Below the pieces are notes generated by a model, which was not told the DNA's origin, ran no database searches, and was given only the letters and a program-made list of their open reading frames with translations. DNA of 64,000 nt from Lytechinus pictus (Eukaryota): NCBI RefSeq assembly GCF_037042905.1, contig NC_087250.1:8310001-8374000 (forward strand), read 5' to 3'. This document shows positions 1,714 to 58,359 of this stretch, in pieces (the first letter of the stretch is position 1; every line of letters starts with the position of its first letter). The translations under genes and the position numbers were made by a program.

Positions 1714-1905
1714 TGTAGACCTGTAGTGTGAACATATATAGATGCATGTGTTCTTCATTATTTCTTGATCATCCTCGATCTCTTCTCTTGTTAGTCGTCA
1801 ATATTCCATCTTTTCTTCCATCACCTTCTTTACATTCCCTTCAACATGCCAGATTCACTCTTCCATCCCTTTTTTTGTTCATGCTTTATTATGTTCACTC
1901 ATACT
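1714..1905 (+). repeat. 5' LTR, left fragment of the non-autonomous LTR element
   Basis: Starts TGTAGACCTGTAG and aligns by eye with 45227-45396. Confidence 0.85.
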
Positions 1906-3554: not shown

Positions 3555-4323
3555 TGTGACGGCCTCTAATCCAACTTTCAGCTGACACGGTTTTCTTGTC
3601 AGGATGCCACCGTGCCTGACCGTCAGTTGCGTTCGTTTGGTCAAAGTATATGACCGTTGCTGATGGTTTATGGAAAAGACTGATTAACAACCATCACCAA
3701 CCGTCGTCTCTGGTTTCTCCAGTCAGATCATCCGTCGATTGCAATCGATCACCTCTCTCGTCTCATTTCAGTCAATCGGACATCCGTCGACCATTCAATC
3801 ACCAGCATTCGTTCCGTACACCAATCATTTGATCCTTTATAACACTCAAAAGAACGTAGTCCAGAGTGCAGGTTCAATGCTTGATCTTTACCTTTAATTT
3901 CTCAAAGATATATCATTGTACAGAACAAAATGAGATACAAGAGATGAAGGGCAGCATTTGCACTACGGTAAAGGGCCGTAACACAGAGCTTCCTTAATGG
4001 AAGTTGGCTCCTCGTATTTATGCATTTTTTAACACTTCGATAAAACAGTTACTAAAGATGACTTCAACAACTACAATAACCTAATTAACTTTGCTAATCA
4101 ACCAGCTTTCTCGAATAAAACAACTGGATAATGCTTAGACAACTTTGCTAATAATAAATTAATCAAAAGGTTTCATGACAACTCCAACATGTTTATAAAA
4201 TGTGCGATTTTGGCTAATTTTCGTTAAATCATAGAACGTATACACATACGATTTCCATATAGTCTACGTTTACAGACCCTATAACATCTCTATGACATTA
4301 AATCGGAAACATAGTTCGTTACA
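3555..4323 (-). repeat. Gypsy 3' LTR
   Basis: Direct repeat of 10625-11393 (offset 7070); no differences seen by eye. Confidence 0.97.
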
Positions 4324-4325
4324 CG

Positions 4326-4340
4326 ACTCCCTCCTCTCTC
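4326..4340 (-). promoter_or_regulatory. Polypurine tract of the Gypsy element
   Basis: Minus strand GAGAGAGGAGGGAG just upstream of the 3' LTR. Confidence 0.85.
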
Positions 4341-4662
4341 GAGCTTGGTCCCCAAGCTAATTAATAACAAACTGTCAACTACTAAACAGAAGGTAACGAA
4401 AAACTCCAAAACAACATAATTTCAACTTTAAGTTTCGAAACACAATAAAGACTTTGTCATATAATTTCTTGTAACAGGTAATTCAGTACAACTTTTTTTT
4501 ATACAATGCAAAGCAACACTGAAATTATGCATTGATTAAAGTCCACAAAAGTCAATATTTTTGACGTCCGGTATCCGTAAAAAGCTTGAAGATTGCAATT
4601 GAGTTCATTATCATGTATCCTTCAGAACTGGTAACTTAGTCCTGGTTAAAGTTGTAGGAAAC

Positions 4663-7600
4663 TCATGTCACAAAATAATCCCGCAGGTATGTAGCAGGTC
4701 GTCTGTCACGGGAGGGATACCGTCTGGCTGAAGTTTCTTTTTCAGGTGTGGTTTCTCCTGTAGCAGTGGGTAATTGTTCATTAGTTGTACCCCCTGCTGT
4801 TGCTCCATCTGTTGCGTCTGCTGGACTGTTGTCTGGTGGCTCTCCAGGTACATCGTCATTGGGTGGAATGTCTCCTGAGGAGCTTTCCAAAGTGTGGTCG
4901 TCCGCCGAAGCTTCATGTGGTTCACCTGCAAGGGTATCATCTGCGGCATGGCTTCTGTCTGGTGGATCTCCAGGCACATCAACATCTGGCATAACGTCTT
5001 CTGGGGAACTTTCAGTATCATGGTCAGTTGTTAACGTGTCATCTTCTGGTCTATCAGATGCGTCTTCACCTGCTGGCGTCTGGTCTGGTGGGTCTCCAGG
5101 CACATCAACATCTGGTAGGATGTCTGCTGGGGAGTCGGTTGTGTCATGCCTGTTGGCACTACTTGGCGAACTTTGTCCTGATTCTTCATCCGCTGAATTC
5201 TCCGGGACCAAGTCTTCTCCAGCGGGTCTGAATTCCCAAGTGGGAAGCCTTACGCCTTGATAGGGCTTCAGCCTGTCAATGTGTACGACCAGTGGTTTAG
5301 ACCTCCGTGACTGTTGAATCCTAACTGTGACATCTGACAGGCGAGTAACAACTAGGTAAGGGCCAAGCCATCGTGGTTGCAGTTTCGGGCAGCGGCCCTT
5401 TTCTCTGGTTTTCTTTCGTAGCCATACAAATTGTCCCACAGCATAAAGAGCTGTATGCACCTTCCTGTCGTAGAACGACTTCTGCCGACGACTCGCTGTC
5501 TTCAAGGATTCTCTTGCTACCTTGTGAGCTCTTTCTAGACGATTCCGGAGCCTGGCACTGTAGTCTGTCTGGTCATCATATTCGGCGGTCTCAGGAGGAG
5601 GGAGATCCCAGTCCATAGGCATGGTTGTTTCTCGCCCTAACATTAACATGTTGGGTGTTTCACCGGTTGATCCCTGGGGGCAACTTCTATAAGCACATGT
5701 AGCGAAGGGGATGAATTGATCCCAATTCCTTTCTCCATCCATGTCCAGGAATGCAGCGATTGTATCCACCAGGGTACGGTTGTACCTTTCGACTAGCCCA
5801 TCGGACTTGGGATTATAGGCAGTGGTTCTGGTTTTGGTGACTCCCAGGATCTTGCAGACTTCTGTGAAGACTTCAGACACGAAGTTGCGCCCCTGGTCTG
5901 AATGGATATACCTAGGAACCCCAAACCGACATGTAAACTCTGTGACAAGTTTCTCTGCCACCGTCTCAGCTTTCTCATCGGGGATTGGGTATGCCTCCAT
6001 CCATTTTGTGAAGTAATCCCCAACGACAAGAACATACTTGTTGCCATTGTCGGTCTTGGGTAGAGGGCCAAGGATGTCTAAAGCAATCCTCTCCATGGGT
6101 GAACCACTTATTCTTTGCTGCAAGGGGGCTCGTCTTGTTTGGCCATGTACTTTCCGTCTAGCACAGATGTCACATTCTCTTAGAGCAGAACGGAAATCCT
6201 CTTTCATTCCGACCCAGTAATACTTTAGTCTAGCCCTTCCCATTGACTTTTCCACGCCAAAATGACCTCCAGTTAAGGTTGCATGAGTCTCCTGGATGAT
6301 GTCCTTGATCATGACTTTTGGGACGACCAACTGCCGGCGAATTGTTGCTCCATCCTCAGATTCCCAGCGTCGGTAGAGTACCCCATCGATGACAACAAGT
6401 GCTTCCCAGTGTTCAAGGAGTCTTCTAGCTTTAACTGACCATGATGCACTTTCTTCCTCCAAAGGTTTGGTTGCTGAGGTCTTTGCATTCAGCACAGGGC
6501 TGATATTCTCGTCTTCTCGTTGTAAGTCACCAATGTTTGTTGCTGGCTCGGGTGCAACCTCCCATGTAGCCATAATCTGTCCAACACAACCTTCATCCTC
6601 CCGGCAGCACTGCAAACAAGGTTTCCGGGAAAGACCATCAGCATTCGCATGACTCCGTCCCTGCCTATGTTGGATGTCAAAGTCGTACTCAGCTATAATC
6701 TCCATCCATCTAGCAAACTGGCCTCTTGGATCTTTAAAGTGAACCAGCCATTGCAGAGATCCATGGTCTGTTCTGATGGTGACATGTCGGCCATATAAGT
6801 ATTGGCGGAACTGCCTCAGGAATACCACCACTGCCAAAAGCTCCTTCCTGGTGACACAGTAGTTCAGCTCTGTCTTGTGTAGAGTGCGACTAGCATAGGC
6901 AATCACCTTCTCGACACCTCCTTGCACTTGAGAAAGGACAGCCCCTATGCCCATGTCACTAGCATCGGTGTCCAAGATGTAGCGCCCTTCTGCAGATGGA
7001 TAAGCAAGGATAGGTGGAGTAATCAGTCTCCGTTTCAGCTCTTCAAACGCTTCCTGACACTCTTTTGTCCACTCAAATTCTCGGTTCTTCTCCGTCAATT
7101 GATGTAATGGTTTTGCCACCATTGCAAATCCCTTCACAAAGCGTCGATAGTAGGACATTAGTCCAATAAAGCTTCGGACTTCTTTAACGGACCGTGGAAT
7201 TGGCCAATTTCTGATGGCTTCTGTCTTTTCTGGGTCTGTTGTGACTCCATCTGCTGATACCACATGCCCCAGATAGACGACACTGGTCCGGAACAGATGA
7301 CACTTTGACGGTTTTAGCTTCAATCCAGATTCCCTCAAACGTTGGAAGACAATTCTTAGTCTAGCTAGTTCCTCCTCAACCGTCTCCCCATACACGATGA
7401 TGTCATCTAAGTAAACAAGCAACATCTTCCATGTCAACCCGGACAGTACTCTATCCATCAGCCGTTCAAAGGTGGCGGGCGCATTGCACAGTCCAAAGGG
7501 CATGACACGCCATCCATACAACCCACCATTGGCCATGAATGCTGACTTCAACTTGGCTTGTTCATCCAACTGGACTTGCCAATAACCACTGGCAAGATCT

Positions 7601-10344
7601 AGAGTTGAAAACCACTTGGCACCACTTAAGGAATCCAGGGTGTCGTCAATCCTGGGTAGGGGGTATGCGTCCTTCACTGTCACCTCGTTCAGTTGACGGT
7701 AATCTATACAGAACCGCTTGGTGCCATCCTTCTTGGTAACCAGAACAACATTAGACGACCATGGACCTGACACCGGTTCGACCAGCCCTTTAGTCAGTAA
7801 GTCACCAAGTTGCCTGTCGATCTCTTCCCTCTGGCCTGCTGGATGTCGTCTTGCTGGCTGTTTTACCGGTCTTGCATCCCCTGTGTTGATCGAATGCTGT
7901 ACCAGGCTGGTCTTCCCCAGGTCATTTGCACTTTGTGCAAAGATGTCTGCAAAATCCTGTAGCAATGCCACCACTTTTTCACGCTGGTGCTCAGGGAGTT
8001 GCTCTGTACTTCGTTGATACAGATTTTCTAGATGTTTTGGTACAGAGTTCGACATCTGGTCAGATTGGGGACAGCGGGCTTCCTCCATATCTTCTACTTC
8101 TTGAATCGAACTCAAACTTGCCACCATCATGCCCTTCTTGACAGTGGTTTGCCTTCTAGTTGAGTTGAAGATCCTTATTGGCAAAGTTTCTGCATCTGCT
8201 GGAACCACAGCCCTGGCTACTAGGAGGCCCTTCTTGCTCAATTCTGTCGAACTGGTAGGGGCTTCCAACAATCCGACCCCGCTAATGGTCATGGAGTTAC
8301 ATCCAGCCACTTCTCCTTTGAGAACAACCTCATGCCCGGCAGGGACGATACTGGTTTCGGAGGCCACGACTCTGCAGCAAAAGTGTCTGCCCTCCTGGTC
8401 TTTACATGGGATGGATTGCCAGGGTGTTCGAAGTTCCATCTTATGGCAATCTAGTTCAGCATGCATCTGAATTAACAGGTCAAGACCGATGATACCCTCA
8501 TTCTTCAATGTAGCCACGGTCAGTTCGACCATGAAGACCAATCCTCCAATGTGCAGTTCCATCGCGGCTTTTCCCCTTGTGTCTAAAGGTGATCCATCAG
8601 CCTGCTGCACCGTGTTATTCATTTCCTCCAAGACTGGCTGCTTTTCCTTGTCGATCATGTTGAAAACATTGTCGGCAATAAAAGATTGCGACGATCCAGT
8701 ATCAATCAGGAATGTTACTGACTGCCCATTGACTTCAGACTCAATGAAAATGCCTTGCCGCTTGACGTTTCCTGACGTACCAACTCGAACTTGTCCAGCT
8801 CCTGGTTGGCCATCCGGTCTAGATGTTTGCTGTCTGTTCCCTCCTGAATCTTTTCCATCTGGACTGGAATGACTGGATTGCCCCCTCTCAATATCTAGTA
8901 GATTATTTGGGCAGTCCTTCTTGAAATGTCCGGTTCCATGACAAAGGTGACAGCGTTTGGTGTCTTTCTCTTCATAAGGACAATTTCGGGCGAAATGTCC
9001 CTGCTGTCCGCAGTTATAGCAGATTCCGTCATACTGTCGTCTCTTTTGGAGTTGCGGTCCGGTGTTGCCTCCCTGTGACGCACTGCTTACATATTTGGTT
9101 AGCAAATCCAACCTAGCTGTAAGATCAGCTAGCATCTTTTCCATCTTTCTAACGACTTCTGCTGTATTGGGGCTAGCAGGGCTCTGCGGCTGCTCATTGT
9201 TGGTCAGTGCCCGACTATGACTGTGCCGGGGAGAATGTCTGAATTCGCTTCGCTCTGTCTCCATCTTAAGGAATGCCTCTGTGTTCAGAGCTGCCTGTAT
9301 GGCCTCATCCAAGGTACGTGGTTGAGCTCGAAACAGACCTTCTCGAATTGCCGGGTTCACCACTGCATCCATGAAATGACTTCGGGCTAGTTTATCTTGA
9401 CCATCTGGGTCAAACTCTTGATAGGCCATCCCTGCCAGGTCTCGGATGCTTTGCCCAAGTTCTTGGAGTGTCTCTTGTGGCTTCCTACGTCGTGCTCTTA
9501 GCTCTGCTAGAAATACATCAGCCTTCCCTGAAGGACCAAAACGTTGTTTAAGTCTGTTGACCAACTCCTGATATGGCAGCTCCATCTCACCATGCTTCGC
9601 CAAAAGTTTCAGTGCCGGACCCCTCAAACTAGCTGCCAGGAAATGTGATGCCTGCCTGTCCGTCCAGTTGTTGATGACAGCACATGCCTCGAAATGCTCC
9701 AAGTAATCAAGGATTGGAGCCTTCCCGTCGAAGCGATCTGGTAACATGCAAGGCTTTGCATTAATGTCCTCTGTTTGTCCTTTGAAAGATGGTCGATTAT
9801 TAAATCGATCATGGTGGTCGCTCATTCGGCCAGGGAATTGATAGTTTGAGGCAGTTTCATCCCTAACTGGAAACTGTTGGTACATCTGAGGACTATATGA
9901 CCCAGGAAAGGAAGGCCGAGGGCTCTGCCGAATTCCCTCTACTGTGTGGTCAGACGTCGTAGGCAAGTTATCAAATGTTTGGTGGGAATTTCCTACAGGC
10001 GGCATGCGTGGATAACCGATAGGAGTTGTTGAGTCAGCCGCAATCTCATGTGCGGTACTCCCTCTGATCAGCCTTCTCGGTTGAAGAGATGGTTCTGTTT
10101 CTCGCACTCCGTCATTCATAGCCGATGTCCTAACGCCAGTGGGAGGCATGCTAGCAATCCCTGTATCACCAGAATGTTGGAAGAGCGGAGTGCTCTGCTG
10201 TGAGTGACGACGTGGCAGTGGAGACCCAGATGTTCGGTGCAAATCAGTGAGTTGTTCGTTGATTTCTGTAATATGGTCTTCCACTTGTTGGATCAGCTCC
10301 GCAGGTGTTAAATGATAAGCAGGATTCCCCTGTACTGCTTCCAT
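4663..10344 (-). CDS. gag-pol: Gag-Pol polyprotein, 1893 aa (Gag with two CCHC knuckles, aspartic protease, RT, RNase H, integrase with GPY/F motif)
   Basis: Motifs CYNCGQQGHFARNC and CHLCHGTGHFKKDC; LIDTGS; LVYLDDII; LDTDASDMGIGAVL; HHCC zinc motif; DILGP/DQGRNF/VERYN; WLGPY. Uninterrupted ORF. Confidence 0.97.
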   Translation of the reverse strand: MEAVQGNPAYHLTPAELIQQVEDHITEINEQLTDLHRTSGSPLPRRHSQQSTPLFQHSGDTGIASMPPTGVRTSAMNDGVRETEPSLQPRRLIRGSTAHEIAADSTTPIGYPRMPPVGNSHQTFDNLPTTSDHTVEGIRQSPRPSFPGSYSPQMYQQFPVRDETASNYQFPGRMSDHHDRFNNRPSFKGQTEDINAKPCMLPDRFDGKAPILDYLEHFEACAVINNWTDRQASHFLAASLRGPALKLLAKHGEMELPYQELVNRLKQRFGPSGKADVFLAELRARRRKPQETLQELGQSIRDLAGMAYQEFDPDGQDKLARSHFMDAVVNPAIREGLFRAQPRTLDEAIQAALNTEAFLKMETERSEFRHSPRHSHSRALTNNEQPQSPASPNTAEVVRKMEKMLADLTARLDLLTKYVSSASQGGNTGPQLQKRRQYDGICYNCGQQGHFARNCPYEEKDTKRCHLCHGTGHFKKDCPNNLLDIERGQSSHSSPDGKDSGGNRQQTSRPDGQPGAGQVRVGTSGNVKRQGIFIESEVNGQSVTFLIDTGSSQSFIADNVFNMIDKEKQPVLEEMNNTVQQADGSPLDTRGKAAMELHIGGLVFMVELTVATLKNEGIIGLDLLIQMHAELDCHKMELRTPWQSIPCKDQEGRHFCCRVVASETSIVPAGHEVVLKGEVAGCNSMTISGVGLLEAPTSSTELSKKGLLVARAVVPADAETLPIRIFNSTRRQTTVKKGMMVASLSSIQEVEDMEEARCPQSDQMSNSVPKHLENLYQRSTEQLPEHQREKVVALLQDFADIFAQSANDLGKTSLVQHSINTGDARPVKQPARRHPAGQREEIDRQLGDLLTKGLVEPVSGPWSSNVVLVTKKDGTKRFCIDYRQLNEVTVKDAYPLPRIDDTLDSLSGAKWFSTLDLASGYWQVQLDEQAKLKSAFMANGGLYGWRVMPFGLCNAPATFERLMDRVLSGLTWKMLLVYLDDIIVYGETVEEELARLRIVFQRLRESGLKLKPSKCHLFRTSVVYLGHVVSADGVTTDPEKTEAIRNWPIPRSVKEVRSFIGLMSYYRRFVKGFAMVAKPLHQLTEKNREFEWTKECQEAFEELKRRLITPPILAYPSAEGRYILDTDASDMGIGAVLSQVQGGVEKVIAYASRTLHKTELNYCVTRKELLAVVVFLRQFRQYLYGRHVTIRTDHGSLQWLVHFKDPRGQFARWMEIIAEYDFDIQHRQGRSHANADGLSRKPCLQCCREDEGCVGQIMATWEVAPEPATNIGDLQREDENISPVLNAKTSATKPLEEESASWSVKARRLLEHWEALVVIDGVLYRRWESEDGATIRRQLVVPKVMIKDIIQETHATLTGGHFGVEKSMGRARLKYYWVGMKEDFRSALRECDICARRKVHGQTRRAPLQQRISGSPMERIALDILGPLPKTDNGNKYVLVVGDYFTKWMEAYPIPDEKAETVAEKLVTEFTCRFGVPRYIHSDQGRNFVSEVFTEVCKILGVTKTRTTAYNPKSDGLVERYNRTLVDTIAAFLDMDGERNWDQFIPFATCAYRSCPQGSTGETPNMLMLGRETTMPMDWDLPPPETAEYDDQTDYSARLRNRLERAHKVARESLKTASRRQKSFYDRKVHTALYAVGQFVWLRKKTREKGRCPKLQPRWLGPYLVVTRLSDVTVRIQQSRRSKPLVVHIDRLKPYQGVRLPTWEFRPAGEDLVPENSADEESGQSSPSSANRHDTTDSPADILPDVDVPGDPPDQTPAGEDASDRPEDDTLTTDHDTESSPEDVMPDVDVPGDPPDRSHAADDTLAGEPHEASADDHTLESSSGDIPPNDDVPGEPPDNSPADATDGATAGGTTNEQLPTATGETTPEKETSARRYPSRDRRPATYLRDYFVT

Positions 10345-10419
10345 GTTCGACAGCTTAATTCAGAAAATGGTGATTGTCAACTTTTGTAAACCGATTGATC
10401 TTTCTCCAATTTTTGCTCC

Positions 10420-10595
10420 AACCAAGTCCTTCGCCAACCAGTTCTGCACCAACCAGTCCTTCTCCAACCAGTTCTGCACCAATCAGTCCTTCTCCAACCA
10501 GTTCTGCACCAACCAGTCCTTCTCCAACCAGTTCTGCACCAACCAGTTCTGACCAACCAGTCCTTCTCCAACCAGTTCTGCACCAACCAGTCAAA
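10420..10595. repeat. 30-bp minisatellite in the Gypsy 5' leader
   Basis: ACCAGTCCTTCTCCAACCAGTTCTGCACCA units made of two related 15-mers, about 5 copies. Confidence 0.9.
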
Positions 10596-10604
10596 CCAGC
10601 AGCA

Positions 10605-10622
10605 ATCCCACTTCTGACACCA
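10605..10622 (-). promoter_or_regulatory. Primer-binding site complementary to tRNA-Leu (CAA/CAG type)
   Basis: TGGTGTCAGAAGTGGGAT, 2 nt from the 5' LTR, matches the recalled tRNA-Leu 3' end ATCCCACTTCTGACACCA. Confidence 0.85.
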
Positions 10623-10624
10623 CG

Positions 10625-11393
10625 TGTGACGGCCTCTAATCCAACTTTCAGCTGACACGGTTTTCTTGTCAGGATGCCACCGTGCCTGACCGTCAGTTGC
10701 GTTCGTTTGGTCAAAGTATATGACCGTTGCTGATGGTTTATGGAAAAGACTGATTAACAACCATCACCAACCGTCGTCTCTGGTTTCTCCAGTCAGATCA
10801 TCCGTCGATTGCAATCGATCACCTCTCTCGTCTCATTTCAGTCAATCGGACATCCGTCGACCATTCAATCACCAGCATTCGTTCCGTACACCAATCATTT
10901 GATCCTTTATAACACTCAAAAGAACGTAGTCCAGAGTGCAGGTTCAATGCTTGATCTTTACCTTTAATTTCTCAAAGATATATCATTGTACAGAACAAAA
11001 TGAGATACAAGAGATGAAGGGCAGCATTTGCACTACGGTAAAGGGCCGTAACACAGAGCTTCCTTAATGGAAGTTGGCTCCTCGTATTTATGCATTTTTT
11101 AACACTTCGATAAAACAGTTACTAAAGATGACTTCAACAACTACAATAACCTAATTAACTTTGCTAATCAACCAGCTTTCTCGAATAAAACAACTGGATA
11201 ATGCTTAGACAACTTTGCTAATAATAAATTAATCAAAAGGTTTCATGACAACTCCAACATGTTTATAAAATGTGCGATTTTGGCTAATTTTCGTTAAATC
11301 ATAGAACGTATACACATACGATTTCCATATAGTCTACGTTTACAGACCCTATAACATCTCTATGACATTAAATCGGAAACATAGTTCGTTACA
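10625..11393 (-). repeat. Gypsy 5' LTR
   Basis: Direct repeat of 3555-4323. Confidence 0.97.
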
Positions 11394-40292: not shown

Positions 40293-40817
40293 GACAATCG
40301 ACAATTAAATTAGGCTACAGTACACCTGTGAAAAATTATAAAGAATTGGAAGGGAGGGTGAACGAAAGAATGAAGGAGAGAAAGAAAATACGAAAGAAAA
40401 GAGATGAATCGATCGAGAAGAAAGAAAAAAAAATTAAGGGGAAAATGAAGTGAAATAAAAAAAAGTTAGAATAAAAGAGAGAAAAAAGTTTCCGTCATTC
40501 TTTGAATTGAATACAGAAAGAAAGAAAAAGAAAGGAATGGAAGAAGAATAAATGTGTGAAAGACAAAATAAAGGAGAGAAAGAAAAAGAGAAAGTAAGAA
40601 AAAGGAGGAGGAAAGAGAGAAAGAATGAAGGAAAGAAAAATGTTTCCTTCATTCTTTGAAAGAAAGAAACAAACAAATATTCTGAAAAACAAAACAATAT
40701 TCTGAAATACGGGACAAATAGGCGTCCCGGGAAGGGTTTGTCGGGACGCCGGGACAAAGAAGCAAAATACGGGACAATCCTGGGAAATACGGGACGTCTG
40801 GTCACCCTGCTCATACT

Positions 40818-41075
40818 TGACTATCTTGTTCTTATTCTCTGATTGTTTCTCTCCCTCTGACTATTCATTTGCCATGTATATTCATATATTTCTTTTATTT
40901 GCTATCTTTGATATTTGAATATTCATTATTTACCTTTGTTATATTTAAATCATGCATGTTAATATTTTATGCCAAATAAACCCCTGAGGTTTAACGTTAT
41001 TCAGCCCAGGGCAGTTCATCACAGGCAATCATTGAGTGAGGTTGTCTCTTTAGAACCACGCCCTTTACCGCTCTG
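40818..41075 (+). repeat. 5' LTR, middle fragment
   Basis: Aligns with 45397-45663. Confidence 0.85.
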
Positions 41076-44000
41076 GGCCCGTATTCCATAAACGAGATAA
41101 GCTTTTTGCTTAAGTCTTAGCAATTTGTCTTAGCATTTTGCTTGTCTAAGAAATCTTCCCTAACGATATTCTATAAACTTTAAGACATTTGTCTCAAGTT
41201 AGACGATATGGCTAAGCCAAAGTCTCAAAGTCAAATTCTATGACCTTCTAAACTGCTGCAGGGGTGACTGCAACAAAATAGCAAAAATGTCATTGAAGTT
41301 GTTTTTTCTTAACAAGTTTGATTTTATTGAAACTAATTACAACTATTGTAGTAAAAGAAGAGCATTCATCACCCATATATGGTAAGAATTCTTTATTCAG
41401 ATTATTCTATATTTTGTTAATTACCAAAACATTTCAATCCCAAACCGAGTGACTTGCACAGTTTTTTATGTATCAGTCCCATTCATTACTTTTCATGTAT
41501 TGTTTGTCAAAATCTAAATGGAATAGGGTAGATTCCTCTCGACATCTTTATTCTACTTCAGTTGAAGTAGACCTAGGGTCTAAGCCAAGGGAAAACATTT
41601 GTAACTTTTGAGACTAGTCTTGGGTCTAACATTAGGCCTAGATCTAGCCTAGAGCTAGGCCCAAGATCTACAACTAATATCTATCTGTTTGGAGGAGAAT
41701 TGAACATTGTTTTTACTTTTTACTTTCCTGAACTAAGGCTGAAGCAAAACGTAACTTTGTTAGTCTAGTGCCGTAGTGGAGCAACTGAGACTGAAGCTAC
41801 ATAGGCCTAGATCTAACGGTAGACCTATATTAGTATTGGTCTAGGCCTAGAACATGCAGGACTTAGCCTGGCTTAGCCTTAAGACAGGGATAGATCTATC
41901 TAGATCTACATGTAGGTCTAGAATAGATCTGACTTAGACCAAAAGGTTCAGTCTCAGACTGTATTTTGGTTGTTCCGCTATTTTAGCATTACGAGTACGA
42001 CACTAAACAGTCTAACGTTACGTTGGCCTAGTCTCACCAATGTGATATGACAGTAAATGTCAGAAACTTTTAAATAAATCCCCAGAAATGACGGTTATTC
42101 CTGTCAACAGTGCTAGATATATCGCTATGCATTGCTTGCCAACTATGCCTAAAGTTAGATCTAGTCCTAGTAGTAGTCTAGACATCTATCTAGATCTACT
42201 CCTGCTTTAGAGTTTAGGTCCATCTGTTTGTTTGGAGTTTTTATTTTATACATTTTGAGGACTTGTTTTGATCTAGGTTTCCAGGACTAAAAAACAGGCC
42301 TAAACCTAGACCAACACTGGCAACAGCTCAGTCTAGACTAGGGCCTAGATTTATATAAGAATTTAGATCTAGGGCCTAGGCGGCCTAGCCTGTGCTTTCT
42401 TCTATTCATTCTACATTTTATTTCTAGCCTATCCGGTAGCCCTAACGTTAGGACTGGCTGATCTAGTCTACTGTTTGATCTAGAAATCTCTAACCTAGGC
42501 CTAGATCTAGACTAAATGACTTACTCACTTAGACTTAAAGTTAGACCCTATCTAGATCTAGAACTATACCAATCTAGGTGTACATAGGGTCATAGTAATA
42601 GGTCTAGATCTAGAGACTTGTAGACTCTATCTCAATGCATGTAGATTCTAGATCTAAAAATAGTAAATGTAGGCTAGATCTAGTCTAGTTCTACTCATCT
42701 AACGTTAGGCCTGAGAAAGGAAGTAGGCTAAGGATCTAGCATTGGATTATTTCTAGGACTAAAGAATCTTGATCTAGGCTTAGATCTAAACTAGGTGCTG
42801 TAGTTCGAAATCTTGAGGTCTAGCCCCCCCCCCCAAAAAAAAAACTAGAACTAAGTCTAAGCCCTCAGCTACATGTAGTTCTCTATGTAGCCAAACAAAA
42901 GTTAGCATTGACCATTGTCTTAATCTTTTTTGGCGTATACATGTAGTTATCATACAAACACATATTTTGATGAATGAGAAAATGTGTCTTGCAGATTATT
43001 TTAGCTCAAAACCTACATTTCATGGACATATAGGCCAATGTCATAAAATGAAGAAGTAGTTCAATACACATGCTGTTTACACATTTATTGATCTGATATG
43101 CTGTTACCATGGCAACAAATTTTCAAATATATGTCTTGCAGATCTACACCTCAAAATCAATGTGTGAGCCAACTTTTATAAGAATTGGTAAAACTAATAA
43201 AGGGATTCAAACCACAAGATTTTCACCTAATTTCTTTATATAATATGTTGTTACCATAGCAACACGAATTCTGATACAGGCAAAAGTATATCTTAGACAT
43301 CTTCAACTCGACTATTGTGTGCGCCAACATTTTAGGAGAATTGACCAGTTGAAAACTGATAAAGTAATTCAAATTACAAGATTTTCATCTATTTTTAGTT
43401 ATTTTATTTGTTGCCATGGCAACGCAATTTTTTATAAAGGCATAAAATATACTTTGCACATCTTCACATCAAGACTAACGTTTGTGCCACATTTCATGAG
43501 AATTGATTAAAAACTGAAGAAGTCGTTGGAACTGCAAGATTTTTACATAATTTTTGCCCTAATATACCGTTACCATGGCTACACAATTTCCGACACATGC
43601 GAAAATGTGTCTTGCACATCTTTACCTCAAGACTTATGTCTGTGGCAAACATCATGAGAAGTGGTTGAAATATTGTAAACTTGTTAAAACCACAAATTTT
43701 TCACCTAATTTTCGTTATTTAATATGTTGTTACCATGGCAACGCAATTTTTGTATATAGGCATAAAATATGTTTTGCACATCTTCACATCAAGACTAATG
43801 TTTGTGCCACATTTCATGAGAATTGGTTAAAAACTGAGGAAGTAGTTGGAATAGCAAGATTTATACATAATTTTTGCCATAATATACTGTTACCATGGCA
43901 ACACAATTTCCGACACATGCAAAATTGTGTCTTGCACATCTTTTCCTCAAATCCAATGTGTGAGCCAACTTTCATGAGAATTGGTAGAAAACCGATGAAG

Positions 44001-44509
44001 TAATTTAAATTTTAAATTTTGGCCATAATATACTGTTACCATGGCAACACAATTTCTGAAAAAGCAAAAAAAAAATTCTTACACCTCCTTACCTTAAGAC
44101 CAATGTGTGTTCCAAATTTCATGAAAATCGGTTAAAAACTTAGGAAGTAGCTCGAAATGCAATATAGGTATAAATTCTTTTAAAAAATTTGCCATGATTT
44201 GTTGGATTTAAACGTTGTCTTAAAGCAATTAAGACAACTCACAACTGTCTTAAAGTTAGGGCAAAATTCTTAGCCATGTAGAATTTATGAAATACAGACT
44301 CTGCATATTTAAGAAAAGTTACTTAGCCATTCATCCTAAATCTGTCTTAGTTGCGCAAAAATTCTTAGCCAAATTCTTAGACAAAATTCTTAGCCAATTC
44401 TTTATGGAATATGCGTTTTGGCTAAGAATTTTGTCTTAGACAGAAAACTAAGACAAAATGCTTAGATTTTTGACTTAAGCGTGCTTATCTCGTTTATGGA
44501 ATACGGGCC
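41076..44509. mobile_element. Harbinger/PIF-type non-autonomous element, 3.4 kb
   Basis: Perfect 27-bp TIR GGCCCGTATTCCATAAACGAGATAAGC; CTG TSD (41073-41075, 44510-44512); CTTAG subterminal repeats. Confidence 0.88.
43030..44170. repeat. ~160-bp tandem array, each unit with GTTRCCATGGCAAC
   Basis: Motif or a 1-mismatch variant near 43083, 43250, 43410, 43569, 43728, 43889 and 44035. Confidence 0.85.
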
Positions 44510-44526
44510 CTGGCCAATCTACAAAT

Positions 44527-44583
44527 TGGTGGCAGCGGTGGGATTCGAACCCATGCACGCTATCGAAATGACTGGTGCCTAAA
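44527..44583 (+). promoter_or_regulatory. Extended primer-binding site: antisense 3' part of tRNA-Leu(UAG) including CCA
   Basis: TGGTGGCAGCGGTGGGATTCGAACCCA...ATCGAAATGACTGGTGCCTAAA begins 3 nt after the LTR end TCTACA. Comparison is with a tRNA sequence recalled from memory. Confidence 0.8.
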
Positions 44584-45226
44584 AAGATAAACTTCGATAC
44601 ATTTTGAATGACGTACTAGATTTGTCAGTTGAATTGTGAAAAGTTCAATTTAGGTGATATTTAATTAGAAAAAAAGTATTGAGATAAAAATGTCACTTTT
44701 AGAGAAATTTGAAGAAGTTTGCTTTCCCTACAAAAAAATACTTTGCTTGGGTAATAATTTGACAATGCTAGATAATTATTGTATTTAAAAAAAATGTATA
44801 TTTAGTCTTTTTATTAAAAAAAAGTTTTCAAAGTTTTGGTCAAATTGATTATGACTTAGACAAATTGATAAAATTTGTTTTTCTCTGATCATAGAATTTG
44901 AAAGATACTCTTTTATGATGAAACAGTTATTTTAACATGTTGATTAATTGATGGTCATGTCTTTGATCAAGGTATATAAAAATTTCATTGCAGAACTGAT
45001 TTGTATATAAAGAAAAATACATATATATATATTTTTAAACTTCAAACCGTTATATTTCGAAGTCATCATGATTGATATGAAATGTCAACTTGATATGTAC
45101 TTTATTAATTCAGATATCATTGAAAACAAACATTTTTATATTGTCAAATATTTTTTTCTCCCTCATACATGAAGATTACTGCAATTTTAAAATGAGGACA
45201 TTTTATTTGTAAGAGGAGATATTGTT

Positions 45227-45663
45227 TGTAGAGCTGTAGCGTGAACAGGGTTTTATAGATGTACTGTTCTTCATTATTCTTGATCATCCTCTCTTCTCTT
45301 GTTAGTCGTCAAAATTCCATCACCTTCTTTACATTCCTTTCAACATGCCAGATTCACTCTATCATCCCTTTCTTTTGTTCATGCTCACTCATACTTGACT
45401 CTTGCTAAGTTCTTATTCTCTGATTGGTTCTCTCCCTCTGACTTAGGTTCATTAATATTCATTAACAGCTATTCATTTGCCATGTATATTCATATATATC
45501 TTTTATTTGCTATCTTTGATATTTGAATATTCATTATTTACCTTTGTTATATATAAATCATGCATGTTAATATTTACTGCCAAATAAACCCCTGAGGTTT
45601 AAAGTTATTCAGCACAGGGCAGTTCATCACAGGCAATCATTGAGTGAGGTTGTCCCTTGTCTC
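45227..45663 (+). repeat. 3' LTR of the non-autonomous element (uninterrupted, end truncated)
   Basis: Collinear with 1714-1905 joined to 40818-41048 across a single CTCATACT. Confidence 0.88.
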
Positions 45664-48600
45664 TGTAAGTTTTTCGAACCACACTGTAGAGTGTACGATG
45701 CAAATTTTTTATAAAGTGGTTATAGTGTGAAATTTACATATCGTTTCTGGGTCACAAAGTTTCGGTGACGTCAGAAGAGTAGGTTTTTGTTGCCAATCGG
45801 TAGAGGGCGTTGTACTTTGTCCCCCATGTTTTTACTTAGTTTTTTTACTTGCTAATTTGTTGTCATCGTTATTTTGCTTTTGACCAAGCCCAATGTTGTA
45901 AGTATTCTAAAATAGATGTTTATATGATAAAGAATAGTTGACTGATAGTTTGTATTGAGAAATGATTTTAAATGATGAATATTTTGGTGAAAATTTTGTT
46001 ACAAAAGTTGTATGAATTATCGCTCATGTTCAGTGAAAGTTTTTCGGTTTGTCTATGTACATATGTATAAGTACAATAATGTGTGTAGTGCGCGAAACTT
46101 GACCGCAGCACTCACGTGTGTTGATTTAGGTTAGTAAACGTTTGTTTACATAAGATATGAAAAGTAAATGGTACATAATTGCATGAAGTTTGTTAGTGAT
46201 GATAATTCATGCCTTTATGATAATAGTGGTAATTTATGTCATAATAGTCATGCACAAGTGGTATGACTGAAAGTACGTCAAAGGTTACAAGATAACCTAG
46301 GGATGCATTGCTAGGGGCATATTTTCTGTTGCCTTAGGCATGGCTGAATGTGTTTTTAATATAGAATTTTGGATATGAGAAACAAATGTGATAATTTATT
46401 CATACCTTGATGTTTCAGTTGAGGTTACAGTTACAAAATTGTTTGTTATTGTAGTTATTTCATTCGGATGCAGCCTAATGATGAATACCGGTAATTGAAA
46501 GCTTTATGATAACAACATAAGAAACAAATAAGGACAGTTGTTAGATTATCTGGTCAGTTGATGTCTTAGACTCGTGTACAATTAAAGGCTTTGTGAATGT
46601 ATAGGTATTGGATTATTAACGCTACATTCGACAATTGTACAAGTTTTTCATGACATTCAATTTATGATTGTTTATTGTTTCATTAAACTGCAGGTCGAAA
46701 CATGCATTCAATAGTTCAACAATTGGTATCGCAACTCGGTTTGATTTTGTGACTTGCTAACGAGGGACTTACAAATTAATGAGACTTAAACGTCACATTA
46801 AGTTCGACACAACAAGGTTTATGAGTGGAATCTGTTCAACTCGCAGAATCAAGATGAGTGTTAAACCTGAGGACACTGTTAACCAACAAGTCTCTGTTGA
46901 ACTTGAGGAGGATTCTGTTAGACCTGAAGACTCAGCCAGTCAGTGTAATGGATCTGCAGTCAGCTCCATGTCAGGTTCTCGACTATGGGCAAAGGCTATG
47001 GCCAAAAGAGCAGCCTTGAAGGCGGAAGCTGAACGTCTTAAGCAGCAGCAGGAGTTGGAACTCGAGCAGTTAAGGTTGCAGCAGAAAAGGAGAGAATTGG
47101 ACTTGCAGACTAAAATTGAAATTGCTCAAGCTGAAGAGCAGATCTTCAGTCTCTTTGATGAGGAAAGGTCTTCTAAAGTGAGTCGTCATCCATCGCATGC
47201 TAGTAAGCAGGAAAAGAAAGGTTCCTTACAGGACAGTCTCCAGTTGGAACAGAAAACTCAAGATGAAACTCTTCTATATCCTCTAGATGACAAGCAGACA
47301 TCCTTTCAGGGATCTTATGGAGTGTTGCCTGCCCCAAATCAGCAGTTGTTGGAAGCAATCAGTCTGCAAAATGTAGAACTCATGAAATTTGATGGAAGTC
47401 TGGTAGGAAGGACGTCCCTGGATGACAGCTCCAAGCTTCTGAAGTTATTCAGTTGTTGCCAAGGTGAAACAAGATCCATTATTCAGTCGTGTATGGTCAT
47501 GGACTCTGCAGTAGCCTACAAGAAAGCCAGAAGCATCCTGGAAGAACGATATGGCAACAAGTTCAAGAGAGGAGATGCTTGGACAAAGAAAGTCATTAAT
47601 GGGCCAACATTGCAGCCAAGTGACAAGAAAGGACTGCAGAAGTTCGCAGATGAGCTGCAGGTTTGCTGCGAGACTCTACAGGCGGTGGACATGGTTGCAG
47701 AGATAAGTTCGCAACAACACCTTGTAAAGATTGTAGAGAGACTGCCTTACTATCTGAGAGCCAGGTGGCTCAAGGTCGTCAAAGATGTCCGTCACCAAGG
47801 TAGATCTCCCAAGTTGAAAGATGTGGTACGCTTTGTGACTGACGCAGCCTGTGAAATCAATGATCCAGTCTATGGAGAGCTGTTTGGAGACAAGAAGAAG
47901 CAGCCTCAAGGATCAAAACAGTCACTTGGGAAAAGATCATCTCAAGCAGCTGGGGTCAACTTTGCTGGATCAGAGAAGAAGAAGGAAGTGGACTGTGCTC
48001 TTTGTGACAAGGGACATGGCATCTTTTCTTGTAACCTGTTTAAGGACATGAAACCTGAAGAACGTCTGCAAATGGCGAAGGATAAGCATTTATGCTTTAA
48101 TTGTCTCAAGCCAGGACACAGTTCAAGTAAATGTTTCCTAAATAGAACCTGCTCTGTGAAAGGATGTAATAGGAAACATAGTAGGTTTCTGCATCTTAAG
48201 AGGAAGGACGATTCACAGAAGACAGATGTTCTGAAGGATACAAGACAGCAGTCATCCAGTTCCAGTGAGACTGATGGGACCACAGCATCATCATCTCAGA
48301 ATGGGTTCGTCGAGACTGCTAACAGCACCTTTGGTAATGCCACGGGGGCCGGTAAAAGATGTGTCCTGCTCATTGTGCCTGTTCGAGTCCAAGCAGCATC
48401 TGGTGGTAAAGCATTGAGAACATTTGCTTTGTTGGATACAGGATCCACGAACTCCTTCTGTACCAAGAGCCTGGCGGAGAAGTTGAATGCCAAAGGTCAG
48501 ACACAGAGGCTATCGTTGACCACCATCGACAATGAACAGACATTGGAAACCAAGGTAGTGGATCTGGTGGTTGACACTGGCCCAATGTCTGAAGCAGTTA

Positions 48601-48950
48601 GGATAGAAAATGTATTCACTAAGGAGAGGATAAACATCAGGAGTGATCACATGGCATCAGTAGGAGAGATTTCTGGTTGGCCTCATCAACAAGATATTAA
48701 TTTGACAATTGCAAGAGGGCAAGAGATCGGTCTGTTGATTGGTCAAGATGCACCTGAGGCCCTCATTCCTCTGGAGGTGAGAAAGGCAGAGACTGGACCA
48801 TAGACTGGACCATATGCTGTACGTACAATTCTTGGATGGTCCTTACATGGTCCGATATCTGGAGAGGCTAATCAGGGACATGTCAAGGCTTCAAGCAGCT
48901 TTATTGATGGTGATTGTCATCTGGAGATGCAGCTTGAAAGATTTTGGATA
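45664..48950 (+). mobile_element. BEL/Pao LTR retrotransposon, 3'-truncated
   Basis: Candidate LTR 45664-46773 (TGTAAG...CTTACA) followed by gag-protease. Homology ends after LERFW; no RT, integrase or second LTR seen. Confidence 0.85.
46779..48950 (+). pseudogene. BEL/Pao Gag-protease, truncated
   Basis: Three BEL-type Cys/His knuckles (CALCDKGHGIFSC, CFNCLKPGHSSSKC, CSVKGCNRKHSRFLH) and ALLDTGSTNSF. GPYAVRTILGW continues after the stop at 48801-48803. Confidence 0.88.
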
Positions 48951-52129: not shown

Positions 52130-54955
<2,826 letters not shown>

Positions 54956-57309
54956 CTAACACACAAAGCCGGTATGTAATTGTTTGTGTCTTCTCAATGC
55001 ATTTCTATCACTTAATGCCTTACCACACTGATCACATTCATAGGGCTTCTCACCAGTATGGACTCGTTTATGGTTTGTGAGGATATTTTCTTGCCGAAAT
55101 GCCTTACCACAAAAATCACATAAATAGGGCTTTTCACCTGTATGGATTCGTTTATGGCTTGTGAGACGAGATTTTCTGCTAAATGCCTTTCCACATTGAT
55201 CACATACATGTACATAGGGCTTCTCACCTGTATGGATTTGTTTATGTGCTTTGAGATTAGACTCGTGTCGAAATGCCTTACCACAAAAATCACATACATA
55301 GGGTTTCTCACCTGTATGAATTCGTTTATGAATTCTGAGATGACTTCTTTGGCTAAATGCCTTACCACATTGATCACATACATAGTGTTTTTCGCCTGTA
55401 TGGATTTGTTGATGTGTTTTGAGATTACATACATTACTAAATGCCTTTCCACATTGATCACATACATGTACATAGGGCTTCTCACCTGTATGGATTTGTT
55501 TATGTGCTTTGAGATTAGACTCGTGTCGAAATGCCTTACCACAAAAATCACATACATAGGGTTTCTCACCTGTATGAATTCGTTTATGAATTCTGAGATG
55601 AATTCTTTGGCTAAATGCCTTACCACATTGATCACATACATAGGGTTTTTCGCCTGTATGGATTTGTTGATGTGTTTTGAGATTAGATAAATGACTAAAT
55701 GTCTTGCCACACTGATCACAAACACAGGGTTTCTCACCTGTATGGGTTCGTATATGGCTTGTGAGACGAGTTTTTCTGATAAATGCCTTTCCACATTGAT
55801 CACATACATAGGGCCTCTCACCTGTATGGATTTCTTTATGTGTTTTGAGACTAGATTCATGTCGAAATGCCTTACCACACTGATCACAAACATAGGGCTT
55901 CTCACCTGTATGGATCTGTTTGTGTCTTCTCAACGCACTTCTATCACTTAATGCCTTACCACATAGATCACACACAAAGGGCTTCTCACCTGTATGAGTT
56001 CGTTGATGGCTTTTGAGGCCGTTTTCTTGCCTAAATGCCTTACCACATTGATCACATACATACGGTTTCTCACCTGTGTGAATTCGTTTATGGATCCTGA
56101 GATTGGATTTTTCAAAAAACGCCTTACCACATTGATCACATACATAGGGCTTTTCACCTGTATGGATTTGTTTATGTGTTTTGAGAGTAGATACACGACT
56201 AAATGTCTTACAGGTTTTCTTACACACAAAGCCCCTACGGAATTGTTTGTGTCTTCTCAATGCACTTCTATCACTTAATGTCTTGCCACATTGATCACAC
56301 TCATAGGGCTTCTCACCTGTATGGGTTCGTTTATGGTTTGTGAGGATATTTTCTTGCCGAAATGCCTTACAACAAAAATCACACACATAGGGTTTCTCAC
56401 CTGTATGGATTTGTTTATGGTTTGTGAGAGGAGTTTTTCTATTAAATGCCTTTCCACATTGATCACATACATAGGGCTTCTCACCTGAATGGATTTGTGT
56501 ATGTGTTTTGAGACTAGACTCGTTTTGAAATGCCTTACCACATTGATCACAAACACAGGGCTTCTCAACTGTATGGATCTGTTTGTGTTTTCTCAACGCA
56601 CTTCTATTGCTTATTGCCTTACCATACTGATCACACACAAAGGGCTTCTCGTCTGTATGAGTTCGTTTATGTCTTGTGACATGGGATTTTACATTAAATG
56701 CCTTACCACATACATCACATACATAGGGCTTCTCACCTGTATGGATTCGTTTGTGTCTTTTCAATGAACTTCTATCACTTAGTGCCTTACCACACTGATC
56801 ACACTCATAAGGCTTCTCACCAGTATGGACTCGTTTATGGCGTTTGAGGACATTTTCTTGCCTAAATGCCTTATCACAAAGATTACAAACATAGGGCTTC
56901 TCACCTGTATGGATACGTTTGTGTCTTGTGAGATGGAATTTTATATTAAATGCCTTACCACATACATCACATACATATGGCTTTTCACCTATATGGATTC
57001 GTTTATGTGTTGTGAGACTATAAGATTGACAAAATGCCTTACCACACTGATCACAAACATAACGTCTCATTTCGAGTATATTTTCCTTGCTTCGTATTTT
57101 TAAAATTCTCTTTTCACCATGTGTAAAATCATTAGTTTTGCACATAGATTTTGGTATTTCTCCTTCAACAAATTGTAGAATGCTTTCCTTTGATGCATAC
57201 GATGGCAAGACAACACCATTAAGCCCATGTTTGTACTTGAGATGCCTTGCTAAGATGAGAGGAATAGCATAGACTGATCCACAGTACTCACATCTGTACA
57301 GTCCAGAAT
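54956..57309 (-). CDS. C2H2 (Kruppel-type) zinc-finger protein, terminal coding exon with about 25 fingers
   Basis: Tandem CxxC-x12-HxxxH fingers with TGEKPY linkers. Acceptor TCTTTTCTTGATAG ends at 57310, so the ORF-track Met at 57331 is probably intronic. Confidence 0.88.
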
Positions 57310-57339
57310 CTATCAAGAAAAGATGATACATACTCTTAA

Positions 57340-58359
57340 AGGGGAATGAAAACTTTGGAATAAGTCTACTAGGCTTTTGTCGAAACAGAAAAATTGAAGA
57401 AACAGATCAACAAAAGTTTAACCCTAACTAGGCCGGGCTTTTTTGGCTGTTCTGTGGCCGGGGGGAGGGTTGATTCAACCCCCCCCCCCCGAGATCTCGG
57501 CCGCCGATCGCGCGAGCGCCACAAAAATTTGCACACTGGTAGTGTGCGATGTAATCTACAAGGCTGTATGGTAAAATTTTCCAAAATAATGAGATTTAAT
57601 TTTATATGAATTAATTATGCTAATTTATGCATAAATCATACTTTTTGCTCTAATTCACTAAATAAAGCTCCTAGAATGCTAGTTTTTGGTAAAAATATTC
57701 TTTGTAGCATTCTTAACAATGGCAATTGAAAAAAACTTCGGTTTGGAAATCAATTTCTTATGTATTTTATTGTTTTATGAATTTCTTATGTATTTCTTTG
57801 TTTTTCAACCTTTTGTTTTTGTTTGTTTTTTTTCACCAGATTTATTGCACAACCTTTTTGAAGCATAATTATACTAAAATCAATTGCTTTCAGCTGTTTA
57901 GAGTAAAAATAATCATATCTTTATGAATAAGAGGAGAAAACTCAATTTGCATTGACTTTGTACACAAAATCACGTTTTGGAACAATTTTTGGTCTGACAT
58001 GCACTTACAAATGTTGCGTAATTTCGGAACCGCTTACCCGGGCGTCTCTACTAAAAATCTCTACTACATGCCCTCCGATAGAAAGAACTCATGATCTACT
58101 GATCTATGAGATAAAAGAGGCAATTTAAGTGAAATATATACTCAAGTAATGTGGAGAGTTGTTCACAAGTGACATCACACATGTTGTCGCATGTCAGAGT
58201 GAGGATCTCCATAGCATTAGTGATCGCAATATTTATTCAAATGCTCATAACCTTCTCATAATTTGTCTGATTTTTCTCAAACTTTCATTAACTGTTTCTT
58301 TGATTTTTCTGTTTTCACACAAGCTATCTTGTTCTACATTGTAAAGGTTTCATTCTCCT
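57340..58359. mobile_element. Kolobok-like MITE with a nested truncated piggyBac-like MITE (57422-~58045)
   Basis: TTAA-AGGGGAATGAAA ... TTTCATTCTCCT-TTAA; inner TTAA-CCCT start. Confidence 0.75.

Follow-up and report, generated by a model that had tools for sequence, protein, structure and literature searches.

In LTR retrotransposons, an 18-nt PBS is the rule, and the locus described here seems to be an exception to it. In the 64,000-nucleotide stretch of DNA analysed (G000:C6:8310001-8374000 of a eukaryotic genome, hereafter the window), the original prediction had placed a PBS of about 57 nt at 44527–44583, reaching to the anticodon of tRNA-Leu(UAG). Reverse transcription through the tRNA, or priming by a 3' fragment of it, had been proposed as its origin. 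The question is whether such a segment represents a PBS of unusual length with which this element is primed, or whether it is the trace of a single faulty round of reverse transcription.

The antisense tRNA-Leu segment

The host tRNA-Leu(UAG) reference was obtained by searching the assembly with the segment and then running ARAGORN on the tRNA-gene loci found. Positions 44527–44584 of the plus strand were the reverse complement of CCA plus nt 82 down to 32 of the host tRNA-Leu(UAG) gene. The tRNA-Leu part thus corresponded to the 3' 51 nt of the gene (positions 73 to 31). The segment had a length of 58 nt and covered 54 positions of the tRNA including CCA. It contained the 3' strand of the acceptor stem, the T arm, the variable arm, the 3' strand of the anticodon stem, the whole anticodon loop and one additional base. 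Compared with the host gene, there was one substitution and one 4-nt insertion, the latter at the border of the T stem and the variable arm. The alignment to the host gene confirmed the antisense relationship to tRNA-Leu(UAG) and the 4-nt insertion that had been predicted. The end coordinate had been set one base short, at 44583 instead of 44584, and the host match was better than expected, with fewer mismatches.

The match to tRNA-Leu did not occur by chance, because a search of the 812-Mb genome with a 70-nt query gave E values of 1e-13 to 1e-15 for the tRNA-Leu genes of the host. No tRNA and no RNA family was called within the window by ARAGORN or Rfam. This fits a copy that is partial and antisense, and the scan is uninformative for such a copy. 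Only the 3' part of the tRNA was present, and hence the copy had no A box.

Structure of the element

The segment lies within an LTR retrotransposon, the 5' LTR of which is split by two nested insertions. At the 5' side of the element, the target-site duplication GTAA (1710–1713) was followed by the first ~190 nt of the 5' LTR (1714–1905, plus strand), starting with TGTAGA. This piece was 87% identical to positions 2–185 of the LTR of a copy on contig C3. It was contiguous with a 5' flank common to the window and a paralogue on C6 (C6up), and the flank and the GTAA|TGTAGA junction were also found in that paralogue.

The first nested insertion (1906–40809) has a size of 38.9 kb and hAT-like hallmarks. 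It was bounded by perfect 13-bp terminal inverted repeats (CAGGGTGACCAGA) and by an 8-bp duplication, CTCATACT, at 1898–1905 and 40810–40817; the LTR of C6up was uninterrupted at this point. The size is exceptional for an insertion with such hallmarks, and the insertion itself contains numerous tandem repeats and one or more intact retrotransposons. An apparently intact, young Ty3/gypsy element was located at 3555–11393 (minus strand), with 769-bp LTRs that were 100% identical and ATAC on its flanks. This element had one gag-pol ORF of 1898 aa (zinc knuckle, protease, RT, RNase H and integrase) and an 18-nt PBS to another tRNA.

The 5' LTR continued at 40810–41075 (plus strand) with LTR positions ~178–489. 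The BLAST identity of this piece was 83% to the C3 LTR and 85% to the window's own 3' LTR. It was followed by the second nested insertion, a TIR element of 3.4 kb (41076–44509) with the ends GGCCCGTATTCC... and CTG on its flanks, recognised by an inverted match of 41075–41177 against 44401–44510. The TIR element sits 11 nt before the LTR end, and the uninterrupted form of the LTR was present in the C3 and C6 copies. Its right end (44300–44513) had at least 40 genomic copies at 98–99% identity, and all of them stopped at about 44513. This looks like a recently active MITE-like family. The ends of the element were sometimes found as adjacent inverted pairs in the genome.

The last 11 nt of the 5' LTR (44513–44523, plus strand, ...CTACA) aligned with the LTR ends of the copies C3rc, C6up, C1, C17 and C3b. 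They were followed by the spacer AAT between LTR and PBS (44524–44526, plus strand), which was identical in all family copies examined. The original prediction had described the segment as lying after the LTR. This was correct for 44513–44523 with the AAT behind it, and it did not apply to the sequence up to 44509, which is the end of the nested TIR element. An uninterrupted LTR immediately upstream of the PBS was considered and rejected, as self-BLAST gave no second copy and the sequence was that of the TIR element.

Downstream of the segment, a remnant of the internal region (44585–45226, plus strand) comprised the last ~640 bp before the 3' LTR and was homologous to the region preceding the 3' LTR in six other copies. 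A polypurine tract (PPT), AAGAGGAGA, was located at 45211–45219, just 5' of the 3' LTR. The 3' LTR (45227–45682, plus strand) was 92% identical to positions 1–472 of the C3 LTR and ended at LTR position ~472, where unrelated sequence begins. The 3' target-site end of the window copy was lost to another insertion.

Taken together, the element had direct TG...CA LTRs (1714–1905, 40810–41075 and 44513–44523 compared with 45227–45682), a PBS matching host tRNA-Leu 3 nt after the 5' LTR and a PPT before the 3' LTR. The two LTRs were ~85% identical to each other, and the window copy is therefore old.

Downstream of the 3' LTR remnant, a 680-aa open frame at 46761–48803 (plus strand) encoded DUF1759 (BEL/Pao-type gag) and an aspartyl protease, and was a fragment of an unrelated LTR element. 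As the coding region of the element, it was considered but discarded, since it lies beyond the end of the 3' LTR and the family is of the Ty3/gypsy type. Further downstream, at 52863–57406 (minus strand), 84-nt repeats formed a long array that encodes C2H2 zinc fingers, with an 816-aa open frame and more than 20 fingers.

The family and its ordinary PBS

The pol domains of the window copy itself have been deleted. A full-length relative on C17 had the order RT – RNase H – integrase, with matches to RVT_1 (6.6e-40), RT_RNaseH_2 (2.7e-36), Integrase_H2C2 (3e-19) and rve (1.2e-12). The family was assigned to Ty3/gypsy because of this order of RT, RNase H, integrase zinc-binding domain and integrase core.

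The family is low-copy. A pattern search for 5' junctions of the full-length type, allowing for up to three mismatches, led to exactly three matches in the whole genome (on C1, C17 and C3) and to none with the reversed pattern as a control. All three junctions consisted of the LTR and AAT, then a 15-nt PBS to tRNA-Leu and then a leader unrelated to the tRNA. The PBS of the family is therefore ordinary.

The same canonical PBS was present in the window. The first 15 nt (44527–44541, plus strand) were the complement of the tRNA-Leu 3' end including CCA, and they were identical or nearly identical in the three full-length-type copies, which then diverge from the tRNA. The following part (44542–44584, plus strand) corresponded to positions 16–54 of the antisense of CCA-ended tRNA-Leu and was missing in the full-length copies. 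It ran through the T loop, the T stem, the variable arm, the 3' strand of the anticodon stem and the anticodon loop, and was colinear with the host antisense apart from the 4-nt insertion, which came later. A PBS of ~57 nt as a property of the family had to be given up: the extension was found in none of the three full-length-type copies and was confined to a deletion junction present in two of the eight copies of the downstream sequence.

A long PBS could be functional and under selection, either through better priming or as a target of tRNA fragments, and such a PBS would profit from the near-perfect or perfect complementarity of 43–58 nt, as this would pair strongly with the tRNA. We nevertheless regard it as scarcely credible. 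The extension was missing in every full-length-type copy and restricted to deletion junctions, and its endpoints and downstream partners varied between derivatives. Moreover, the derivative of the window type was not amplified, with two of eight copies going back to one integration.

Expression did not speak for a function either. The RNA-seq depth over 44527–44584 was zero in three runs of one study with the same species label (with roughly one quarter of each run covered), and no more than one read fell on 44585–44671 in the same runs. All RNA reads near the segment were on the TIR element and broke at 44513, and hence they come from other copies of that element. The proposed role of transcripts as targets of tRNA halves and tRFs thus found no support in these three runs.

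One more junction of the family differed in the length of its PBS. At G000:C3:4396680-4396900 (L072), only 8 nt of the PBS stood between the LTR end with its AAT and unrelated sequence. Transfer may have been premature here, which would be the opposite error, or nucleotides may have been deleted later.

Deletion junction and shared integration

From position 44583 on, the window was homologous to six other places in the genome, all of which had different, mutually conserved internal sequence upstream of this point. The parental sequence was therefore present in six of the eight copies. In the window, the tRNA copy passed without intervening sequence into the final ~640 bp that precede the 3' LTR; the corresponding stretch of the C3 copy was the last ~610 bp before its 3' LTR. 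Both LTRs were kept, and the deletion between the PBS and this point comprised ~5.6 kb of gag-pol, as measured by the C17 copy. The join lay within an A run common to the anticodon-loop copy and the parental site, which corresponds to an ambiguity and microhomology of 2–3 nt. The tRNA-derived end was accordingly ambiguous over positions 33–31.

The two copies spanning the junction were the window copy and C6up, which is located 81 kb upstream on the same contig. They had 872 nt of 5' flank and LTR in common at 89% identity, with the same GTAA|TGTAGA insertion point. In C6up, the GTAA was repeated after the 3' LTR, which demonstrates a real integration, and the same GTAA was present at the 5' side of the window copy. 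As flank and insertion site are shared, both copies go back to a single integration event and arose from it by a later segmental duplication. That a mobile derivative had transposed independently to the two places was considered and rejected because of the common flank and target site. The two copies also differed: the 4-nt insertion was private to the window copy, and C6up had a 5-nt deletion of its own and C instead of A opposite tRNA position 34.

The structure of the junction also bears on an origin unrelated to priming, in which a tRNA-derived SINE or tRNA retropseudogene landed beside the LTR by chance or a tRNA gene recombined there at the DNA level. In mammals, other reverse transcriptases have produced partial tRNA copies ending in CCA, and a tandem repeat derived from tRNA-Leu exists on contig C2. 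At this locus, we consider such an origin very improbable. The copy started exactly at the PBS start of the family and was antisense, as a PBS requires. It had no target duplication of its own and was fused to the LTR spacer on one side and to element-internal sequence on the other, and ~5.6 kb of internal sequence was replaced rather than added to. The host tRNA-Leu genes have no CCA, and the same arrangement was found behind several different LTR-like ends (see the following subsection). The original prediction had named, as one possible outcome, an independent SINE or pseudogene that is absent from other copies. The extension was indeed absent from the other copies; the segment was not such an independent element.

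Recurrence in the genome

Only one integration event of the window junction type was found, and the recurrence rests on other junctions. A second, independent derivative of the family on C3 carried a perfect tRNA copy of 43 nt, then 8 filler nt, and continued within the integrase core of the parental sequence. The filler nt repeated part of the tRNA copy. The LTRs of this derivative were 97.4% identical (TGTAGAG...CTACA), and the PPT was present. In addition, related LTRs were followed by tRNA copies of 46 nt and 34 nt. Within the family, two of five independent 5'-junction lineages were read-through products.

When the genome was searched for the complement of CCA together with 25 nt of antisense tRNA, allowing two mismatches at most, there were 61 matches, compared with none in the reversed control. 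The matches were made up of tRNA genes, which do not encode CCA, and ~29 CCA-bearing sites; two CCA-bearing sites, on C14 and C17, are outside the counts. In the 29 rows examined, the tRNA copies ended after 27–85 nt, and the downstream sequence was different in each. More than half of them (16 of 29) were located 0–3 nt behind an ...ACA end typical of LTR termini, and they belonged to several families. For two LTR-end types, most genomic junctions had an 18-nt PBS and a minority continued into the tRNA, with canonical 18-nt junctions being under-counted, since the design of the LTR-end pattern favours the extended form. The deletion architecture was established for family A, i.e. for the window and C6 copies and for C3; at ~25 other sites, it is suggested by the LTR-like ends.

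Among the endpoints, one group was located at antisense positions 45–49, next to position 37, and one copy was full-length. Two sites ended exactly before position 26, and one site passing position 26 was changed there, which suggests a mark at this position on the basis of a small number of sites. About 5 of the 25 independent sites ended inside the anticodon loop.

The last observation is relevant for a primer that was already cut. If the primer was a tRNA-Leu 3' half cleaved in the anticodon loop, the plus strand would have run off the 5' end of the fragment, followed by an internal transfer. The end of the window junction (positions 33–31) is in or beside the anticodon loop, as expected from such a fragment, and so are the ~5 of 25 endpoints inside the loop. 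The essential anomaly, which is the passage of A58, is left unexplained by a cut primer. Furthermore, endpoints of 27–85 nt that include stems, the variable arm and a full-length copy mean that full-length primers were used at least sometimes. We therefore regard the cut primer as improbable, though less so than the two origins rejected above, and prefer read-through of an intact tRNA.

Further tRNA-Leu copies of the genome had their own features. L085–L087 (G000:C2, ~19.99 and 20.81 Mb) were tandem repeats, each unit consisting of ~47 nt of CCA-ended tRNA-Leu antisense and ~30 nt of spacer; this appears to be a read-through scar amplified into a satellite. Four sites (L054, L056, L083 and L094) had CCA-ended tRNA-Leu copies of 49–64 nt directly behind ...TGGCG instead of ...ACA, with differing flanks and differing changes opposite G37. 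A complete 85-nt copy of tRNA-Leu(UAG) including CCA was located 2 nt behind ...ACA at G000:C11:1841717-1841801 (minus strand, L033). Either the primer was read up to its 5' end here, or the copy is a gene with CCA behind it by chance. At G000:C12:3034000-3067000 (L034–L060), there was a dense cluster of tRNA-Leu(AAG) alternating with tRNA-Leu(UAG), none of which encodes CCA.

Substitution hotspots and tRNA modification

Hotspot statistics were calculated for 25 independent sites, with the duplicates C6up, C13b, L085 and L087 left out. The p values are from a binomial model and were corrected for 52 positions. The substitution rate was 2.0% for non-CpG cells (17 of 867) and 13% for CpG cells (27 of 202). 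Opposite A58, 5 of 25 sites were changed, four of them from T to A (Bonferroni-corrected p = 6e-3). Opposite G37, there were changes to T, A or G in 5 of 11 sites (corrected p = 6e-5). Opposite position 34, A was replaced by C in three of nine sites (four of ten with C6up) and never by T (corrected p = 3e-2).

Reverse transcriptases misincorporate at m1A58 and m1G37, and inosine-34 of tRNA-Leu(AAG) is read as G. Hotspots at A58, G37 and 34 are presumably the pattern to be expected when a mature tRNA with m1A58, m1G37 and I34 is copied; the modifications of the host tRNA-Leu were taken from general eukaryotic knowledge. The AAG and UAG tRNA-Leu genes of the host differ only at position 34. Hence, C opposite position 34 would indicate that the primer was IAG, and it is in line with editing that T was never seen there. 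In the window lineage, the primer could have been UAG (A in the window) or IAG (C in the paralogue). The scars thus suggest that information was kept on the modification of the tRNA and on the isoacceptor used as primer (UAG or inosine-AAG).

The window copy had no change at A58 or G37, and it is the context that points to an RNA template there. CCA is not encoded in the host tRNA-Leu genes, yet it is part of the PBS anyway.

For the genome as a whole, the chances are about even that it holds a fossil record of primer read-through. Such a record would comprise dozens of independent LTR–tRNA-Leu junctions from several Ty3/gypsy families, with endpoints and base changes that mark m1A58, m1G37, inosine-34 and possibly m2,2G26 in the tRNA-Leu pool of the germline when each event took place. 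If this is true, integrated scars could be mined across genomes as a 'palaeo-epitranscriptome'. It would also mean that non-autonomous LTR elements with internal deletions arise regularly from primers that were hypomodified or bypassed.

Proposed course of events

We conclude, with a probability of roughly 85%, that the segment is the scar of an aberrant reverse-transcription cycle of a tRNA-Leu-primed Ty3/gypsy LTR retrotransposon. Reverse transcription through the tRNA, one of the two origins proposed at the outset, proved to be the best explanation: the insert begins 3 nt behind the LTR in the register of the PBS and is colinear with the primer far beyond position 58.

We infer the following order of events. 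In a normal cycle, the plus-strand strong-stop DNA would copy only the 3' end of the primer, in line with the genomic PBS of 15 nt in this family. In the aberrant cycle, the reverse transcriptase would not have been halted before A58, and the primer would have been copied via the T arm, the variable arm and the anticodon loop. As the cause of this read-through, we infer either a primer that was hypomodified at A58 or a bypass of m1A58. The new 3' end would then have landed on the minus-strand DNA ~640 nt upstream of the 3' LTR and not on the complement of the PBS. The landing may have used an A-run microhomology of 2–3 nt, and the microhomology at the junction faintly hints at such a step. The resolved heteroduplex would have given an element with an internal deletion and two intact LTRs. 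This product, lacking ~5.6 kb of gag-pol, would have integrated with a 4-bp target duplication. Later, the integrated copy would have been duplicated within a chromosome segment, and both copies would have decayed and gained nested transposons.

Implications

What the feature preserves is a known reverse-transcription error, fossilised in a Ty3/gypsy derivative that is dead, twice interrupted and duplicated; it does not represent a new way of priming. What looked like an exception to the 18-nt PBS rule is a natural example of a failed m1A58 stop, which led to a gutted, integration-competent element. An error that was documented lately in HIV-1 reservoirs thus shapes the retrotransposon populations of the germline as well. 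In annotation, more than 18 nt of tRNA complement behind an LTR should be taken as a flag for an internally deleted derivative and not for a new priming mode. The genome-wide scars with hotspots at modification sites are a more interesting lead than the window locus.

Comparison with known systems

Partial tRNA copies with CCA are known from mammalian 'tailless' tRNA retropseudogenes, which are free-standing insertions by the LINE machinery and often start in loops. As in these, a partial tRNA 3' fragment with CCA was fixed in DNA. Unlike these, the fragment described here was fused in register to LTR and PBS and to element-internal sequence.

In yeast Ty1 and Ty3, primer contacts can be extended or bipartite, and retroviruses likewise contact the tRNA outside the PBS; in these functional elements, the contacts are conserved boxes, each of them short and separate. 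The element RNA described here would likewise be complementary to the tRNA outside the 3' 18 nt, in its case over one continuous copy, which is absent from functional-type copies and tied to a deletion. The existence of tRNA contacts beyond the PBS is also stated in general terms in 10.1101/2025.05.12.650695.

In the literature searched, in which older subscription papers are incompletely covered, no report of primer read-through copies in genomic LTR retrotransposons was found; the work found concerns HIV-1 only. According to two sources, m1A58 is the stop in reconstituted HIV-1 plus-strand strong-stop synthesis, with later stops at 54/55 or 37 or a run to the tRNA 5' end (PMC8599865; review PMC13191261). 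A primer without m1A58 is predicted there to be copied further (PMC8599865, PMC13191261). Similarly, the endpoints described here were near 37, before 26 and at full length. A difference is that those products from in vitro and cell-culture work are said not to integrate (PMC8599865, PMC13191261), whereas the copies described here were integrated and inherited.

The closest parallel is found in defective HIV-1 proviruses, for which tRNA-Lys3 inserts of 7–54 nt at the deletion junction have been described and explained by 'deferred second-strand transfer' (Hardy et al. 2025, PMC12657518). Of 44 HIV-1 inserts, five were changed at position 58 (PMC12657518). The scars described here agree with these proviruses in several points: LTR and PBS were intact, the tRNA copy went past position 58 in register and with variable length (27–85 nt here), the insert was the 5' edge of a large internal deletion and a subset was changed at position 58 (5 of 25 here). 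Compared with the proviruses as described (PMC12657518), the differences are in the host, which is a non-mammalian eukaryote, in the germline Ty3/gypsy elements, in the tRNA-Leu primer and in the signals at positions 37 and 34. Moreover, the products described here are fixed in the genome and old, with LTRs 85% alike in the window copy, and one of them has been duplicated.
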